DNA from: an uncultured Mycoplasmatota bacterium
Lineage (GTDB): Bacteria > Bacillota_I > Bacilli_A > RF39 > UBA660
Direction: 5' to 3'
DNA length: 64,000 bases
NCBI GenBank assembly: GCA_947652325.1
Contig: CANTCQ010000007.1
Coordinates: forward strand, 3,160-67,159
The first letter of the stretch is position 1. Each line of letters begins with the position of its first letter. Below the pieces are notes generated by a model, which saw only the letters and a list, made by a program, of their open reading frames with translations, made no database searches and was not told the origin of the DNA. The translations under genes were made by a program, and so were the position numbers. Below are positions 29,909 to 47,899 of this stretch, one piece after another.

Positions 29909-31225
29909 CTATTTACTATTCAAACAGTCCTGTAAGACTAAAACTTTTTTATGTCCGATTTCTTTTGCATAAACAACATTTGTAGCATTTTCAAATTGTT
30001 CTCTTATTAAATTAAAATAACTTTCTTTGTTGGAACTTATTAATTTATATATATCTTCTACTGGAGTATTTATTAATAATTTTGGTGACAACGGGTCAAA
30101 CTCTTCTTCAAGTCTCCCATTTCTAAACTCCATTTTATTTCTAAAGGTTTCTATATTCTCACAAATAATTGCAATAAAACTATCTTTTCCAAATCTTTTT
30201 TGGATAGTTACCATAATCTCTTTTAATTCTTCACTCGTTATTTTGCCTTCACTAAAAACAGGTAAATTAAATTCTTCATTTACAAGAATTTTTCTGCGAA
30301 ATTCAGGTTTAAATGTACGTTTTTCCCAAAAATATTTAATATAGATTGATTGATTATTTTTATAAATTTCCATTGTATGATGATTTCCCTCACCTGTTCC
30401 TCCTCTAAATACTATTGCTGAATTCGTTTGACTGTCTTTTATAAAAGGATAATCTTCAACTCGTAAATTTAAAGGAAAATAATTTTCCACATCCGTATCT
30501 TTCGTATTTTCTAAACATATTCCTCTTAAGTAATTACATATATCTCTTTGCTTAAAATTATTTATTCCGAAAATAATATCATTATTTTTATAAAAAAAAT
30601 ATTTATCTTGTGAATCATTTGTTTTTATCTTATTAGATAATCCGTAAGTAAAAACTCGTTCAAAAGCTTTAGTTCCAAGCTTTTGTCCATTAAAGGAATG
30701 CCTAAAAACTTTTGTTAATAATGGTTGATTATACATATTATCATTTTCTAATATATTTTTATTGTATCTAACAGTGAACTTCTCTCCATCATTTATAAAA
30801 AAATGAATAGAATTGGGCATCTCTTTTTCAATAATTAATTCATATTTTTCTTTTATAAATGTTATTTTTGTTATAATAGGGTTATTTTCTCCAATATAAT
30901 AAAGAGCCTCTATGTTAGCATTTTTATTTTTTACTTTCGTACTAATAAAACGTGTTACACATCCGCTATAATTTAGTAAATCTGCATCTTCAGTAAATTT
31001 TCCTTCGTAAGAAGTATTGTATTTTGTATCTACTATTACTATAGAAGGACAATCATAATCTATCTTTTCTATTTTATAATCATCTTCTCTTTCTCTATCA
31101 ATTAAAATATTAAAATAAGATGCTATTTCAAATAATGTGGCTGTTCCATCCGTTCTTTCTTTTGTATAAAATTTGTGTGTTCTTCTTATAGAACGTTTTA
31201 TATATTCTATATCATTTTGTCCCAT
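29909..31225 (-). CDS. Hypothetical protein (~438 aa), last gene of the putative SOS-controlled operon divergent from lexA.
   Basis: RBS AAGAGG before MGQNDIEYIK. No recognisable domains. Confidence 0.5.
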   Translation of the reverse strand: MGQNDIEYIKRSIRRTHKFYTKERTDGTATLFEIASYFNILIDREREDDYKIEKIDYDCPSIVIVDTKYNTSYEGKFTEDADLLNYSGCVTRFISTKVKNKNANIEALYYIGENNPIITKITFIKEKYELIIEKEMPNSIHFFINDGEKFTVRYNKNILENDNMYNQPLLTKVFRHSFNGQKLGTKAFERVFTYGLSNKIKTNDSQDKYFFYKNNDIIFGINNFKQRDICNYLRGICLENTKDTDVENYFPLNLRVEDYPFIKDSQTNSAIVFRGGTGEGNHHTMEIYKNNQSIYIKYFWEKRTFKPEFRRKILVNEEFNLPVFSEGKITSEELKEIMVTIQKRFGKDSFIAIICENIETFRNKMEFRNGRLEEEFDPLSPKLLINTPVEDIYKLISSNKESYFNLIREQFENATNVVYAKEIGHKKVLVLQDCLNSK

Positions 31226-31314
31226 ATGTACCTCTTCTTTTTGTTTATATTTTATCATGTATCAACACTTATTAACAATAAAAAATTGTATCAAAGAAGA
31301 TACATGTTTTCTTA

Positions 31315-31647
31315 TTATATCCATTTGGCAAGTGTTCCATTTAGAACCATTTCTTTTTCGGTTAAGGCATCAAATAAATTAATATTTAAACTATTACAAA
31401 TCGAAACAAGTACGAGGAATATGTCAGCAATTTTGGACTCAGAATTTTTATAATTTTCTTCTTTAATCGAAACACGTACTTCACGCCCTAATTCTATTAC
31501 ATTAAAGAATAAACGGAACATTTCACTTGCTATATCTTTTTTATTAAATGTATTTACATTTATTTTTTCTTCTACGTAAGCTTGTATTAAATCCAGGCTA
31601 TCTTCACGTGATAATTTGTTTAGTAATTCTTCTTTTTTTATATTCAT
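31315..31647 (-). CDS. MazG-like all-alpha NTP pyrophosphohydrolase domain protein (110 aa), tentative.
   Basis: Small helical protein with an E-rich central helix (FNVIELGREV) and an IADIFLVL...NINLFDA pattern resembling MazG/YpjD-type house-cleaning NTPases. Confidence 0.4.
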   Translation of the reverse strand: MNIKKEELLNKLSREDSLDLIQAYVEEKINVNTFNKKDIASEMFRLFFNVIELGREVRVSIKEENYKNSESKIADIFLVLVSICNSLNINLFDALTEKEMVLNGTLAKWI

Positions 31648-31800: not shown

Positions 31801-31860
31801 ATACATTCCCTCTTTCTGAATCCACTTTAACACGTATATTTGTTCGTGTCAATATCTTTA

Positions 31861-31874
31861 TGAACATTTGTTTG
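31861..31874. promoter_or_regulatory. Candidate LexA (Cheo) box between the divergent lexA and SOS operon promoters.
   Basis: tGAACATTTGTTTG versus the Firmicute consensus CGAACRNRYGTTCG (12/14). It overlaps the lexA -35 region. Confidence 0.45.
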
Positions 31875-31922
31875 ACTTTTTACATTTGCTATGATACGAT
31901 GATTATGGAGGTTACGTTTAAA

Positions 31923-32540
31923 ATGAAAGAACTAACTACAAAACAAACGGAAGTCTTAAATTTTATTAAAAAATATACAGCTATGCATGGGTATCCCCCT
32001 GCTATTCGAGAAATTTGTGCTGGACTTGGTTTATCTAGTCCTGCAACGGTTCATGCTCATGTTAAAAAGCTAGAAGAAGCTGGAGTTATTAAAACGAGTA
32101 ATAACAAATTTAGAACGATTGAAATCTTAGTGGAAAATGAATATGTAGAAAAAGAAGAAGATGTTGTAAAAATTCCTCTTTTGGGAAAAGTTACAGCAGG
32201 AAGTCCAATCGAGGCTATTGAACAACCCAATGAATTTTTTAATATTCCTGCTTCTTTGGTTCCTAGAAAAGAAGTTGTATTTGCTTTACATGTAAGTGGT
32301 GAATCGATGATTAACAAAGGAATATTCGATGGAGATTATGTAATAGTACAAAAGCAAAAGGTAGCTCGTAATGGCGATGTCGTTGTTGCCATGACGGAAG
32401 ATAATGAAGTTACTTTAAAAACGTTTTATAAAGAAAAAGATTATGTACGCTTGCAACCTGAAAATGATACAATGGCTCCAATTATTTTAGCAAATTGTAC
32501 TATTTTAGGAAAAGCGATTGGTTTATATCGACAATTTTAA
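31923..32540 (+). CDS. lexA: LexA repressor.
   Basis: N-terminal wHTH and C-terminal S24 peptidase with the cleavage-site AG and catalytic S...K (VSGESMIN). Start at MKELTTKQTEV after GGAGG. Confidence 0.9.
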   Translation: MKELTTKQTEVLNFIKKYTAMHGYPPAIREICAGLGLSSPATVHAHVKKLEEAGVIKTSNNKFRTIEILVENEYVEKEEDVVKIPLLGKVTAGSPIEAIEQPNEFFNIPASLVPRKEVVFALHVSGESMINKGIFDGDYVIVQKQKVARNGDVVVAMTEDNEVTLKTFYKEKDYVRLQPENDTMAPIILANCTILGKAIGLYRQF

Positions 32541-32590: not shown

Positions 32591-33655
32591 TTAGAGCCCA
32601 TATCTTCGATTAAATTTTTCTATTTGAGATAATCTTTTCTTTTGTAAAGTATACGATTGTTCTGTTTGGCTTTGTTCTTGATATGTTGTTTCATTATAAT
32701 TTATCAAATTTTCTTTTCTTAACTCTTCTTCATTATTAATGTATCCAAAAGTTACATTTCGATTTTTTAGTAAATTATACTGTGCTTCACTTAGTAAGTA
32801 TATTTTTTCACCAAAAAATATTTGTTTTAAATATACTGTGCTTATATATCCTTTTATAAAATTTAAATTTATTTCTACTGCTGTTGGAAACGAGGCATTT
32901 ATATCTGATAATGAAGGAACATTGACATGTAAAGTTTTGTTATGCGCATTTATCAAATATTTGTGGGAATGTCCATGAAGTACAATAGGAGCGGTTGGAA
33001 GTAATACTTTTCCACCTAATATATGATGATAAAGTAATATGTTATCATTTTTTATATTTATAATTGTATTATTAAATCCACCAATAATAATATCTTGGCG
33101 ATAACTTTTTGCAATTTCAATAATATTTTGTGCACTACTTTGTAAAGCACTTTTATCATGGTCTCCTGCTACTCCAAATGTTAAAATATTTTTATCAAAT
33201 GGATAATCCTTAATAAAATGTTCTATTTGTAAAAAGGTGTCTTCTATGTTTTGTTGTGTTTTTGAAAAAGTACCATCTATCAAATCACCACAACAGAAAA
33301 TAATATGAATTCCATTATTTATACAATAATCAAATGCTTTATCTAATAAATCTAATCGCTCTAAAGAACTTCCAAAATGTAAATCCGAAATTGCTAGACA
33401 TCTAAATTCTGTTTCTTTATGGGATGTAATTATATTTAATTGTTGTTTCTCATTCAACTCCTTTATTGAAAAAATAGGTTTATAAGAAATAACTCCATTA
33501 GAATAATATTTTTGTTTTAATAAGAATCCTTTATTTTTTAAATTTGTTAAATTATTAAATAGCTGTTTATTTGAAATGTTTAAAATAGAACATATTTCAT
33601 TACAGGTCTTCTTTTCCTTTAAAAGCTGTATTAATTGTGTAGTTTGGTCTGACAT
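32591..33655 (-). CDS. Fusion of an N-terminal HTH domain to a calcineurin-like metallophosphoesterase.
   Basis: N-terminal ~70 aa HTH-like (CNEICSILNISNKQLFNNLTNLKNKGFL). The phosphoesterase motifs are ISDLHFG, GDLIDG, GNHD-like GDHD and GHSH. Confidence 0.7.
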   Translation of the reverse strand: MSDQTTQLIQLLKEKKTCNEICSILNISNKQLFNNLTNLKNKGFLLKQKYYSNGVISYKPIFSIKELNEKQQLNIITSHKETEFRCLAISDLHFGSSLERLDLLDKAFDYCINNGIHIIFCCGDLIDGTFSKTQQNIEDTFLQIEHFIKDYPFDKNILTFGVAGDHDKSALQSSAQNIIEIAKSYRQDIIIGGFNNTIINIKNDNILLYHHILGGKVLLPTAPIVLHGHSHKYLINAHNKTLHVNVPSLSDINASFPTAVEINLNFIKGYISTVYLKQIFFGEKIYLLSEAQYNLLKNRNVTFGYINNEEELRKENLINYNETTYQEQSQTEQSYTLQKKRLSQIEKFNRRYGL

Positions 33656-33680
33656 AAATATATCCCCCTTTTTTATTGGG

Positions 33681-33716
33681 CTATATTATAACTCCCCCCC
33701 CCCGATACTTGTCAAG
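33681..33716 (-). promoter_or_regulatory. SigmaA-type promoter of the HTH-phosphoesterase gene with a G10 tract in the spacer.
   Basis: Minus strand: TTGACA-agtatcGGGGGGGGGGagt-TATAAT. The spacer is 19 nt and a strong RBS AAGGGGGAT precedes the ATG. Confidence 0.6.
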
Positions 33717-33734
33717 CAAAAATGGCATAAAAAA

Positions 33735-33760
33735 AACAGATAATGCTCTGTTTTTTTCAA
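33735..33760. terminator. Bidirectional rho-independent terminator downstream of the rhomboid gene.
   Basis: AAAAAAACAGATAATGCTCTGTTTTTTT hairpin flanked by A- and T-runs. Confidence 0.65.
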
Positions 33761-33766
33761 AAATTT

Positions 33767-34906
33767 TTATCTAAACAACACAAATATTAAAAATATAAGA
33801 TAAATAATTAGGACAATTGCACCATTTAATTTATCGTTTTTTTCAGATTTGCCTATAATACCAACTGCCATTGTAGCAAGATATCCTCCTATTAAACCAC
33901 CCAGATGCGCAGCATTATCAATACCACTCATCATAAACCCTAAAAACAAATTCATTAAAATTAAAGGAATAATTTGAGCTTTTAATATGTTTCCTAAAAA
34001 CAATCGGTAATGGTAACCAAAGTAAAGCATACTGCCAAGTAACCCAAATATGGCTCCACTTGCTCCAACGGAGATTGTTGTTGAAAATATAGATGACATG
34101 AGGCTTCCACTTATAGCACTTATGATATAAACAAATAAAAATTTCTTTTTCCCGATGAAATTTTCAAGCTGAGAACCTATAATACATAATGAATACATAT
34201 TGACAAACAAATGGATTAGACCAGCATGTAGCAATGTCCCAGTTAACAGGCGCCATATTTCTCCTTCTTGAATAGCTGGTGCAGATACTGCTCCAAATTT
34301 ATAAAGCGTTAAAGCGTTCATACTTCCATTCCCTAAGGCATAAGTAAGCAAAAACATAATCGTACAGATTGTCATAATAGCATAGGTAATGATTATTTTT
34401 TTTGGTTTAAACGTTGCTTCATAAATTCGATTATTTTTTTCCGTTTTGGCGTTAATACCTTCTGTTACATTTAAAATCAAATCAATTCCTTTTGTATCTT
34501 TTATCAACTTATTTTCTATGCTCGGGAAAAAAGGAATAATTTTTGTTGTTTCTTTTTCGCTTCCATCTTTTAAAATAACTGTCTTAATATGTTTATCTTC
34601 AAGAGGTTTTACTTCATCATTTACATCTAAAAAAATATTAAATGTATTCATTGTAAATGAAACGGTTTTTTTCTTTATTTGGCGCATTACATTTTTTATT
34701 TTAAATAAATCAGTTCTTAATTGCTCATTGTTATGAATATAATTAGAATTAATACGAACGATTTTATATTTTGCTTCACTATTTTCTAACCAAACTTCAT
34801 CTTTTACACCATTTACTATAATTGGTACATAATTTTCTTCTGTTATAAAATAATGAACAAGTCGCATTACGATTTCATCTTTTTTAGTAATTGTAATTGT
34901 ATTCAT
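33767..34906 (-). CDS. Rhomboid intramembrane serine protease with an N-terminal cytoplasmic domain (YqgP/GluP-like).
   Basis: Six TM core with GASGAIFGLLG (GxSG) and a downstream His. ~180-aa soluble N-terminal domain. Confidence 0.8.
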   Translation of the reverse strand: MNTITITKKDEIVMRLVHYFITEENYVPIIVNGVKDEVWLENSEAKYKIVRINSNYIHNNEQLRTDLFKIKNVMRQIKKKTVSFTMNTFNIFLDVNDEVKPLEDKHIKTVILKDGSEKETTKIIPFFPSIENKLIKDTKGIDLILNVTEGINAKTEKNNRIYEATFKPKKIIITYAIMTICTIMFLLTYALGNGSMNALTLYKFGAVSAPAIQEGEIWRLLTGTLLHAGLIHLFVNMYSLCIIGSQLENFIGKKKFLFVYIISAISGSLMSSIFSTTISVGASGAIFGLLGSMLYFGYHYRLFLGNILKAQIIPLILMNLFLGFMMSGIDNAAHLGGLIGGYLATMAVGIIGKSEKNDKLNGAIVLIIYLIFLIFVLFR

Positions 34907-46198: not shown

Positions 46199-47899
46199 TT
46201 AAAAAACTCCATTCCAAGATTCATGTGTTGGTTTATTTGCTGGGCTTTTATAAAACATATTTGATATTTGAGAACTGGATTGTCGTATAAAATTATTTCC
46301 ATAATTGATTTGATTCAAGTTTTTGCATTCATAAAACATTTCAGTCATATCTGTTACATTGCTTGTATCAAAATTACTTATATCTAAATTAATTAAATTT
46401 TCTCTTCCATAAAACATACGTCGCATGTTGGTTACTTTATTGGTATTAAAATTACTTAAATTTAAATTTGTTATTTTACTACGATTATTAAAATTATCAT
46501 AAAACATTTCTTCCATATTTGTTACGTTACTTGTGTTAAAATGGCTTATATTTAAGTTTACTAAACTTGGACAAAGCCCAAACATTTGTCTCATATTTGT
46601 TACATTACTTGTATCAAAGCTACTTAAATTTAAATTAACTAAATTTCGACTATTATAAAACATACCAAACATATTTGTTACATTACTTGTATCAAAGCTA
46701 CTTAAATTTAAATTAACTAAATTTATGTCACCAGCAAACATATTAGACATATCTTTTACTTTGCTCGTATTAAAATTACTTACATCCAAATCAGTTAATC
46801 TTTCACACGCGAAAAACATACCAGACATATTTGTTACATTACTCGTATCAAAATGGCTTACATCTAAATTTGTTATGTGATTACTCCCTTGAAACATACC
46901 AGACATATTTGTTACATTACTTGTATCAAAATTACTTAAATCTAAATTAATTAAATTTATGTTAGAACGAAACATACCAGACATATTTGTTACATTACTC
47001 GTATCAAAATATTCTAATCCTTCAATACTTTCTAAATAATAAAAACTTTCAAATAACATTCTACTATTAGAAGGTGCTTTAACCCCACCTTCACTTTGTA
47101 TATATAAAGTATATTTTGATGCGTTATTTTCATTCGGAACCAAATAACCCATAACACTTCCATCCGAATTTTCAGATAAATTAAAGCTTTCTATAACATT
47201 TTCTTTAGAATGCATTTCGGGTTCAAATACTATCTTTGTAATAGTATTTTGATACTTTAACGACCAAAAAGCTTCATACTGTTTATAAGCCATCATTGTT
47301 CCTCTAGCATCATAATTATCATCTATGACTCCTGTAACACTTATTTTTCCGATAAGATTTTTGTTCATAACATCATCTTCCATTGTAACGTTTTCATCTA
47401 ACCATAATTTTAAAGTATATGTTTTACTTTCTCCTATTCCTAAAGAATCAGTAGTTAGTTCATAAGCTTCTATAGCTTTTTTGTTATTTTCTTCATAAGT
47501 AGGTTCTACACTTGTATATTCTTTTAATTTTTGTATTTTTTTCTCATTAAAATTTGTATGGATATATTCACTTGAAAGTTGATTTTCTACTTCTAGTATT
47601 TCTAAATTCACACTATAACTTACTGCTAAATTACAAGTATTTTTTACTCTAAATGTATAGGGAACTAAACTTTTTGCTTCTTCTTTAGTTAATGGATAAG
47701 CATTTTTTAAACTAATAGCACTATTCTCTACATCTTCTATTATTACTTGTAAACAATTACTGGTTATTTTATTAATGCTTTCTTGATAGGCAGTATGAGT
47801 CCATAATGCATAACTGACACCTAGTGCTACTCCTATTATTGTTATGATTCCGATTATAAGTAAAAATATTTTTGTTTTCTTTTTGTATTTTTCTTTCAT
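46199..47899 (-). CDS. Surface protein with BspA-type leucine-rich repeats. Its N-terminal module is paralogous to 12152..13762.
   Basis: About nine ~22-aa repeats of the form L.NL.[LI]S.FDTSNVTNM.GMF. N-terminal signal-anchor plus the AYPLT..PYTFRVKNTC..YSVNLE module. Confidence 0.75.
   Translation of the reverse strand: MKEKYKKKTKIFLLIIGIITIIGVALGVSYALWTHTAYQESINKITSNCLQVIIEDVENSAISLKNAYPLTKEEAKSLVPYTFRVKNTCNLAVSYSVNLEILEVENQLSSEYIHTNFNEKKIQKLKEYTSVEPTYEENNKKAIEAYELTTDSLGIGESKTYTLKLWLDENVTMEDDVMNKNLIGKISVTGVIDDNYDARGTMMAYKQYEAFWSLKYQNTITKIVFEPEMHSKENVIESFNLSENSDGSVMGYLVPNENNASKYTLYIQSEGGVKAPSNSRMLFESFYYLESIEGLEYFDTSNVTNMSGMFRSNINLINLDLSNFDTSNVTNMSGMFQGSNHITNLDVSHFDTSNVTNMSGMFFACERLTDLDVSNFNTSKVKDMSNMFAGDINLVNLNLSSFDTSNVTNMFGMFYNSRNLVNLNLSSFDTSNVTNMRQMFGLCPSLVNLNISHFNTSNVTNMEEMFYDNFNNRSKITNLNLSNFNTNKVTNMRRMFYGRENLINLDISNFDTSNVTDMTEMFYECKNLNQINYGNNFIRQSSSQISNMFYKSPANKPTHESWNGVF
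46596..46735. repeat. Near-perfect ~66-bp tandem duplication inside the LRR coding region.
   Basis: ...catatttgttacattacttgtatcaaagctacttaaatttaaattaactaaattt... occurs twice in direct succession. Further diverged copies occur through 46380-47000. Confidence 0.7.

Follow-up and report, generated by a model that had tools for sequence, protein, structure and literature searches.

A poly-G tract of variable length in the promoter spacer of a winged-helix/metallophosphoesterase gene: a candidate phase-variation switch in uncultured gut Bacilli

In a 64,000-nucleotide stretch of DNA from an uncultured Mycoplasmatota bacterium (hereafter the window), a run of 10 G residues lies between the -35 and -10 hexamers predicted for a metallophosphoesterase (MPE) gene, and the length of this run differs between samples of the same species while the flanking sequence does not. 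We consider it likely that the run is a hypermutable homopolymer that alters promoter spacing through slipped-strand mispairing. Related lineages carry the tract at the same position, and known promoters with spacer repeats offer close parallels.

Read on the minus strand, the promoter has a -35 hexamer, TTGACA (33715-33710), and a -10 hexamer, TATAAT (33690-33685), each of which matches the sigma-70/SigA consensus perfectly. The 19-nt spacer between them (33709-33691) is made up of AGTATC (33709-33704), G10 (33703-33694, C10 on the plus strand), and AGT (33693-33691), exactly as the initial annotation of this DNA had described it. The ribosome-binding site placed downstream by the same annotation was also recovered as AAGGGGGAT (33670-33662); it ends 6 nt before the ATG (33655-33653), and this G-rich Shine-Dalgarno sequence is kept in the orthologues. 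The -10 hexamer and the start codon are separated by 29 nt. The two hexamers presumably act as a working SigA-type promoter of the MPE gene (32591-33655, minus strand).

The window has a GC content of 28.6% and not the ~27% first given. G10 is the sole G or C run longer than 6 nt in 64 kb, the next-longest runs are 6 nt (n = 4), and only ~0.0008 runs of at least 10 would be expected under an independent-base model. It also exceeds the length of about 8 at which uninterrupted G:C repeats are classed as hypermutable. Perfect matches to TTGACA-N15-21-TATAAT occurred just once in the window, bracketing G10, and this lone pair is by itself not significant because at least one match was found in 31 of 100 shuffles. 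Rather, what is non-random is that both perfect hexamers bracket the sole long G run and are correctly spaced from the start codon.

Other readings of these bases were rejected. At G10, the alternative -35 hexamer with 17-nt spacing would be GACAAG, which on inspection agrees with the consensus in one position out of six, and the promoter does not have an extended -10, as AGT rather than TGn precedes TATAAT. On both strands, ORFs that run across the tract lack conservation, which excludes a frameshift switch or small-ORF model, and a 55-aa antisense ORF (33576-33743) is a by-product of one particular tract length. Rfam models found one tRNA in the window and no match at this locus.

Exact-protein look-ups retrieved further same-species assemblies. 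In the window species, four assemblies contained G10 (SRR25706372, SRR26138733, SRR26138806, and ERZ12802852) and one contained G11 (SRR31203361), the flanks of which were identical to those of the G10 contigs at 1060 of 1060 positions. In a second species (P0005, 67% identical to the window protein), G9, G10, and G11 were assembled from three runs of a single project, again with 1060/1060 identical flanking positions. A third species (P0006/P0123, 66% identical) had G8 and G11 contigs with 1022/1022 identical flanking positions, as well as G10 in a metagenome-assembled genome (MAG). Tract length was therefore the sole difference over more than 1 kb between samples within each of the three species. 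Length heterogeneity among related isolates had been suggested as a check on the initial annotation, and its presence in these three species (G10/G11, G9/G10/G11, and G8/G10/G11) means that G10 is not invariant. The repeat varies and its flanks do not, with all lengths being assembly consensus values.

Each of these lengths was taken from a consensus contig rather than from reads, and some of the short-read metagenomes behind the contigs have a coverage of 2-5x. Because Illumina sequencing miscalls long G runs, tract differences of one base could be technical, whereas the difference between G8 and G11 is less easily dismissed. About ten contigs (L003, L005, L008, L010-L015, L110, and L112) end at, in, or a few bases from the tract. 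Furthermore, two ENA SPAdes contigs of the window species (L002:1-60 and L004:1-60) have more than 50 bases of poly-C fused to garbled sequence at the -10 region. The breaks and the poly-C junk together indicate that this region is hard to sequence, and the breaks fit sequencing drop-out and true heterogeneity equally well. The poly-C ends could also be taken to mean that the whole G run is a sequencing or assembly artefact, such as poly-G from two-colour Illumina dark cycles, and is absent from the genome. However, several independent runs, different assemblers, and different species all yielded an internal G10 with identical flanks on both sides, and this recurrence across independent samples and assemblers indicates that the tract is not an assembly artefact; we consider such an origin extremely improbable. 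The ends of L002 and L004 are instead typical two-colour poly-G artefacts captured by a real G tract. As a separate observation, on one G11 allele (P0122, L108:96-1190), the gene caller ran the ORF upstream through the promoter to give 364 aa instead of 339 aa, showing that tract length alters automatic annotation.

Related loci were gathered through look-ups of the nearest homologues and a scan of GTDB, and they share the gene order rluD-rhomboid-MPE(-lexA). The closest relatives in this one-genome-per-species collection are uncultured gut MAGs labelled as Bacilli, “Tenericutes,” or CAG:451/CAG:1000-type, which we take to correspond to RF39-like Bacilli. The best match was 74% identical, which places the window's own species outside the representatives scanned. 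Three of the loci (L016 [CAYSFO010000003.1], L064, and L075) are labelled “uncultured Muribaculaceae bacterium,” yet each is a low-GC Bacilli-type locus with rhomboid/lexA-type neighbours, and these labels are probably binning or taxonomy errors. A scan of JGI metagenomes with the clade alignment was uninformative, returning two distant homologues (40-41% identity) with no tract.

The window lineage and four others, with orthologues 66-75% identical, have an uninterrupted tract of G8-G11 between recognisable hexamers, and the spacer bases flanking it differ. The nearest of these (P0002/L016, 74%) reads TTGACT-tttcgtt-G10-t-TATAAT, with an 18-nt spacer, and P0004/L103 (68%) reads TTGACA-gaaggtt-G10-TATAAT, with 17 nt. 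The three runs of the P0005 species (67%) read TTGACA-aacctatc-G9/G10/G11-TATAAT, for spacers of 17, 18, and 19 nt (L096 has G9 and 17 nt). In the P0006/P0123 species (66%), the MAG (L017) reads TTGACA-gaaggtc-G10-TACAAT, with 17 nt, while two other runs have G8 and G11 before CACAAT, with 15 and 18 nt. We note that in these P0123 variants (L109:1457-1470 and L111:23-39), the CACAAT in place of TACAAT is predicted to weaken the promoter, in addition to the variation in tract length between G8 and G11. A sixth lineage (P0003/L102, 72%) reads TTGACA-aaagtc-GGGAGGGGGG-t-TATAAT. Its tract is interrupted and its spacer is exactly 17 nt, so that this single contig looks like a locked-ON derivative.

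By contrast, outgroup orthologues (58-60% identity) lack a tract; there, unremarkable sequence of 16-17 nt separates TTGACA from TAAAAT or TATTAT. More distant orthologues either directly follow a tRNA gene or are N-terminally extended, and they too lack a spacer tract. The tract-less outgroup promoters fix the ancestral promoter position: every orthologous promoter, these outgroups included, has TTGACA or TTGACT in an equivalent position, and across eight lineages the hexamers are conserved and the distance from the -10 hexamer to the ATG is 28-32 nt. Five of six lineages have kept the tract free of interruptions, even as the other spacer bases changed. Long G or C runs are otherwise rare in this DNA; of ten runs of at least 8 nt in 517 kb of related sequence, nine are in the 5′ control region of this metallophosphoesterase gene family (eight of nine when only distinct runs are counted, because L104 is the same contig as L017). 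By this distribution, the tract dates back to the common ancestor of the clade, within which protein divergence now reaches about a third. Together with the length-only differences within species, this is the pattern typical of a hypermutable repeat under selective maintenance.

G runs were also seen in two distant, N-terminally extended phosphoesterase homologues of 440 and 398 aa. In these (L027:891-899, G9, and L083:1275-1282, G8), the run forms or overlaps the ribosome-binding site, 4-5 nt before the ATG, and L027 has a second G9 just 3′ of the gene, at position 2512. Such recurrence of G tracts at the 5′ end raises the speculative idea that this phosphoesterase family has perhaps come under G-tract control repeatedly.

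The number of non-G spacer bases is 9 in the window species and 7-8 in its relatives, and yet G10 is the modal tract length in four lineages with 7, 8, or 9 such bases. This could leave some room for selection on the G run as such, perhaps in the role of a binding site. Under this explanation, the tract would be a static promoter element and the observed length differences would be noise. It might serve as an operator, with the winged-helix protein as one possible regulator, or as a stiff stretch of G:C pairs that determines the basal strength of the promoter. Low coverage and the frequent breaks and poly-C junk at the tract are in line with error-prone reads, and one contig (L107, 2.35x coverage) has obvious errors beside the tract. 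Still, G8 vs. G11 with 1022/1022 identical flanking positions and G9, G10, and G11 within one project exceed the usual consensus error of one base, and the fact that Logan contigs require repeated k-mers counts further against noise. Moreover, neither the length of an operator nor its distance to the hexamers would be expected to vary, yet the total spacer spans 15-20 nt (mostly 17-18 nt in the relatives), and the interrupted L102 allele retains the 17-nt spacing but not the G run. We therefore find a static element unlikely.

The reading that we prefer is that replication slippage (slipped-strand mispairing) would add or drop single G:C pairs in the tract. Because the tract is positioned by the hexamers and by the tract-less outgroups, every single-base slip changes the -35/-10 spacing; each would shift the distance by 1 bp, altering the rotational phasing of the hexamers along with their spacing. 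Sigma-70/SigA promoters are optimal at 17 ± 1 nt. With 9 non-G bases in the spacer, G8 would give the optimal 17 nt in the window species. Its predicted states are thus high expression at G8, intermediate expression at G9 (18 nt), and low or no expression at G10 and G11 (19 and 20 nt), and the window sequence would itself be a weak allele. Transcription of the MPE gene would then be set stochastically and heritably. By analogy with known systems, changes in tract length probably alter expression, and we would expect switching to be fast and reversible within a population. The comparative evidence, both the length variation between identical flanks and the tract between hexamers in five lineages, supports the slipped-strand spacing switch that the initial annotation had proposed. 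Judged by sequence, the locus has the hallmarks of phase variation mediated by a promoter-spacer repeat.

One result fits this model less comfortably. All six of the window-species samples had a spacer of 19 or 20 nt, and none had 17 or 18 nt. Either expression of the MPE gene stays low in all populations sampled, or this promoter does not follow the spacing rule in a simple way. The explanations that we can offer for the long spacers are selection for low expression or promoter decay. Alternatively, the tract could be hypermutable but neutral or decaying, an accident passed on from the ancestor of the clade that drifts in length without a bet-hedging role and has simply weakened the promoter in the window species. 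The uniformly weak predicted state of these samples, the interrupted tract of one lineage, and a gene product with no evident tie to host or phage interaction are all consistent with such a history. However, five lineages retain an uninterrupted G run of at least 8 despite protein divergence of 25-34%, in DNA where G or C runs of at least 7 are otherwise almost absent, and this persistence would be difficult to account for in the absence of selection. At the ribosome-binding site, G8 or G9 also occurs independently in two more distant homologues. Neutrality or decay is thus quite improbable in our estimation, and the conservation of the tract suggests that it may be maintained by selection for switching.

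The gene under this putative control encodes a protein of 354 aa, in which a winged helix at the N-terminus (residues ~1-60) is followed by a calcineurin-like metallophosphoesterase domain. The initial annotation had called it a fusion of a helix-turn-helix (HTH) domain and a phosphoesterase, and the two halves of that description are not equally secure. Pfam identified the phosphoesterase directly (Metallophos_2, 3e−08; Metallophos, 1.5e−06; both above the gathering score), and the superfamily motifs D-x-H, G-D, G-[ND]-H-[DE], H, and G-H-x-H are all present. The corresponding metal ligands (D91, H93, D124, H166, H210, H229, and H231) are invariant across 32 homologues. The HTH half, by contrast, was recognised through the winged-helix topology of an AlphaFold2 model and through sub-threshold HMM matches. 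This model (mean pLDDT 87.6) has an N-terminus of three helices and two strands (H-H-H-beta-beta) and then a phosphoesterase sandwich. Structure searches recovered the generic fold alone, with matches to the PolD DP1 exonuclease, YfcE, MJ0936, Vps29, Mre11, and purple acid phosphatase. None of the NCBIfam, PADLOC, or PHROG models names the protein. The PADLOC matches were weak (E 3e−4 to 3e−3), falling short of a defence assignment, and they aligned the N-terminal winged helix with the HTH parts of CARF, Csa3, and CasR models.

It is possible that the poly-G tract causes a DNA-binding phosphoesterase to be expressed stochastically, which would generate heritable differences between subpopulations of this gut commensal in regulatory or nucleic-acid/nucleotide-processing activity. 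Such phasevarion-like bet-hedging would centre on a protein resembling a transcription factor, in place of a surface antigen or a methyltransferase. The family would then have been recruited repeatedly to G-tract control, at the promoter spacer in this clade and at the ribosome-binding site in L027 and L083. We offer this as a tentative suggestion that may well prove wrong.

The MPE gene lies in a chromosomal context, as indicated by its neighbours lspA, rluD, a rhomboid protease gene, and a convergent lexA. The order rluD-rhomboid-MPE-lexA is kept in the clade (synteny in L001, L096, and L104). Upstream is the gene for the rhomboid-family membrane protease (33767-34906, minus strand; Pfam Rhomboid, 1.4e−35). 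An AT-rich hairpin with A7/T8 flanks (33759-33728, minus strand) follows the rhomboid gene and resembles a terminator usable on both strands. It has a folding energy of −12.6 kcal/mol (z = −3.6), and 0 of 200 shuffles folded equally well. The bidirectional terminator of the initial annotation thus exists as a hairpin, but it is weak and AT-rich, and a terminator scan called no terminator, this hairpin included, because it has only 2 G-C pairs.

Downstream, lexA (31899-32540, plus strand; Pfam LexA_DNA_bind and Peptidase_S24) may start at 31899 or 31923 and is 213 aa long in the calls of other assemblies. SOS control of the MPE gene was considered and rejected after we found no GAAC-N4-GTTC in the 64-kb window, the MPE promoter included. 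The sole LexA-box-like sequence, with one mismatch, is 5′ of lexA itself, where GAACATTTGTTT and TTTGTTCG (31855-31875, plus strand) are candidate LexA (Cheo) boxes. Adjoining lexA is a 110-aa ORF (31315-31647, minus strand) with no Pfam match, the position of which is kept in sister species (L096 and L002-L005), and beside it is a 449-aa ORF (29909-31258, minus strand) with only a sub-threshold match to Alp7A_like_C. Elsewhere in the window, a 566-aa protein (46199-47899, minus strand) combines a membrane anchor at its N-terminus with a tandem array of about ten 26-residue repeats. The repeats (46501-47010) have the consensus “...FDTSNVTNMSGMF...” and a 78-nt DNA period, with a TRF score of up to 458. 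They appear to us to resemble the DUF285/BspA-like leucine-rich repeats, which are common in Mollicutes-like bacteria.

Promoters of this design are well known from pathogens. PMC5320596 (citing van der Ende 1995 and Carson 2000) and PMC7864442 place a poly-G tract of Neisseria meningitidis porA and a poly-C tract of N. gonorrhoeae/meningitidis fetA between the -35 and -10 hexamers. The tract length differs by strain and sets the hexamer spacing and thereby the level of transcription (PMC5320596; PMC7864442). Expression is graded as high, medium, or low rather than strictly ON or OFF. Our locus shares with these genes a homopolymeric G:C tract in the promoter spacer. However, porA and fetA encode outer-membrane proteins of Gram-negative pathogens under immune selection, whereas here the host is a low-GC gut Bacilli lineage and the target is a cytoplasmic winged-helix/phosphoesterase. 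The expression effects of the Neisseria tracts have also been demonstrated, while ours are predicted from sequence.

In Treponema pallidum, the OmpW homologue tp0126 has a poly-G tract between its -35 and -10 hexamers, with optimal transcription at a 17-nt spacer (PMC7864442). The tprL tract of this species ranges from 7 to 11 G within isolates by fragment analysis, and the tprE/G/J/L poly-G tracts are not strictly spacer tracts, being located just 5′ of the transcription start (PMC7864442). Like tp0126, our promoter has poly-G inside the spacer, and its G8-G11 falls within the tprL range. By contrast, the Treponema tracts control surface-protein genes in a spirochaete, and the heterogeneity there was found within isolates while here it was found between samples.

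The phylogenetically nearest precedent is in Mycoplasma hyorhinis, a wall-less, AT-rich relative of the Bacilli that likewise has a homopolymer in its promoter spacers. In work of the 1990s by Yogev, Citti and Wise, the length of a poly-A tract between the -35 and -10 hexamers of the vlp genes reportedly switches these lipoprotein genes ON (17 nt) or OFF. In contrast to our locus, the tract there is poly-A and controls a multigene family of surface lipoproteins. The Vlp system is also cited in a 2025 review (PMC11868660). The same review describes Clostridioides difficile pdcB and pdcC, phase-variable c-di-GMP phosphodiesterases with downstream regulatory consequences (PMC11868660). These provide the nearest precedent for our type of target, the stochastic ON/OFF expression of a cytoplasmic phosphodiesterase in a Firmicute. 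Even so, they use an invertible promoter, site-specific recombination, and EAL-type enzymes, and not a repeat tract and a calcineurin-like metallophosphoesterase. Phase-variable genes mostly encode surface structures or restriction-modification systems (PMC11868660), and among them a cytoplasmic target such as ours is atypical.

The mechanism itself is already known, and what is less usual is its host, an uncultured commensal of the gut Bacilli, and its cytoplasmic winged-helix/phosphoesterase target. A literature search for RF39 and phase variation found nothing relevant. Nearly all documented cases of repeat-driven phase variation are from cultured pathogens and involve surface or restriction-modification genes, and the 2025 review poses as an open question whether this limitation is genuine or stems from database bias (PMC11868660). 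The locus described here is a clear, evolutionarily conserved candidate for phase variation in an uncultured, AT-rich lineage of gut Bacilli. If the candidate holds true, promoter-spacer switches would extend to commensal bacteria of the Firmicute lineage, and the MPE protein family would be marked as one with expression under fluctuating selection. It would also serve as a warning to annotators that contigs break and gene calls shift at the tract in these organisms.
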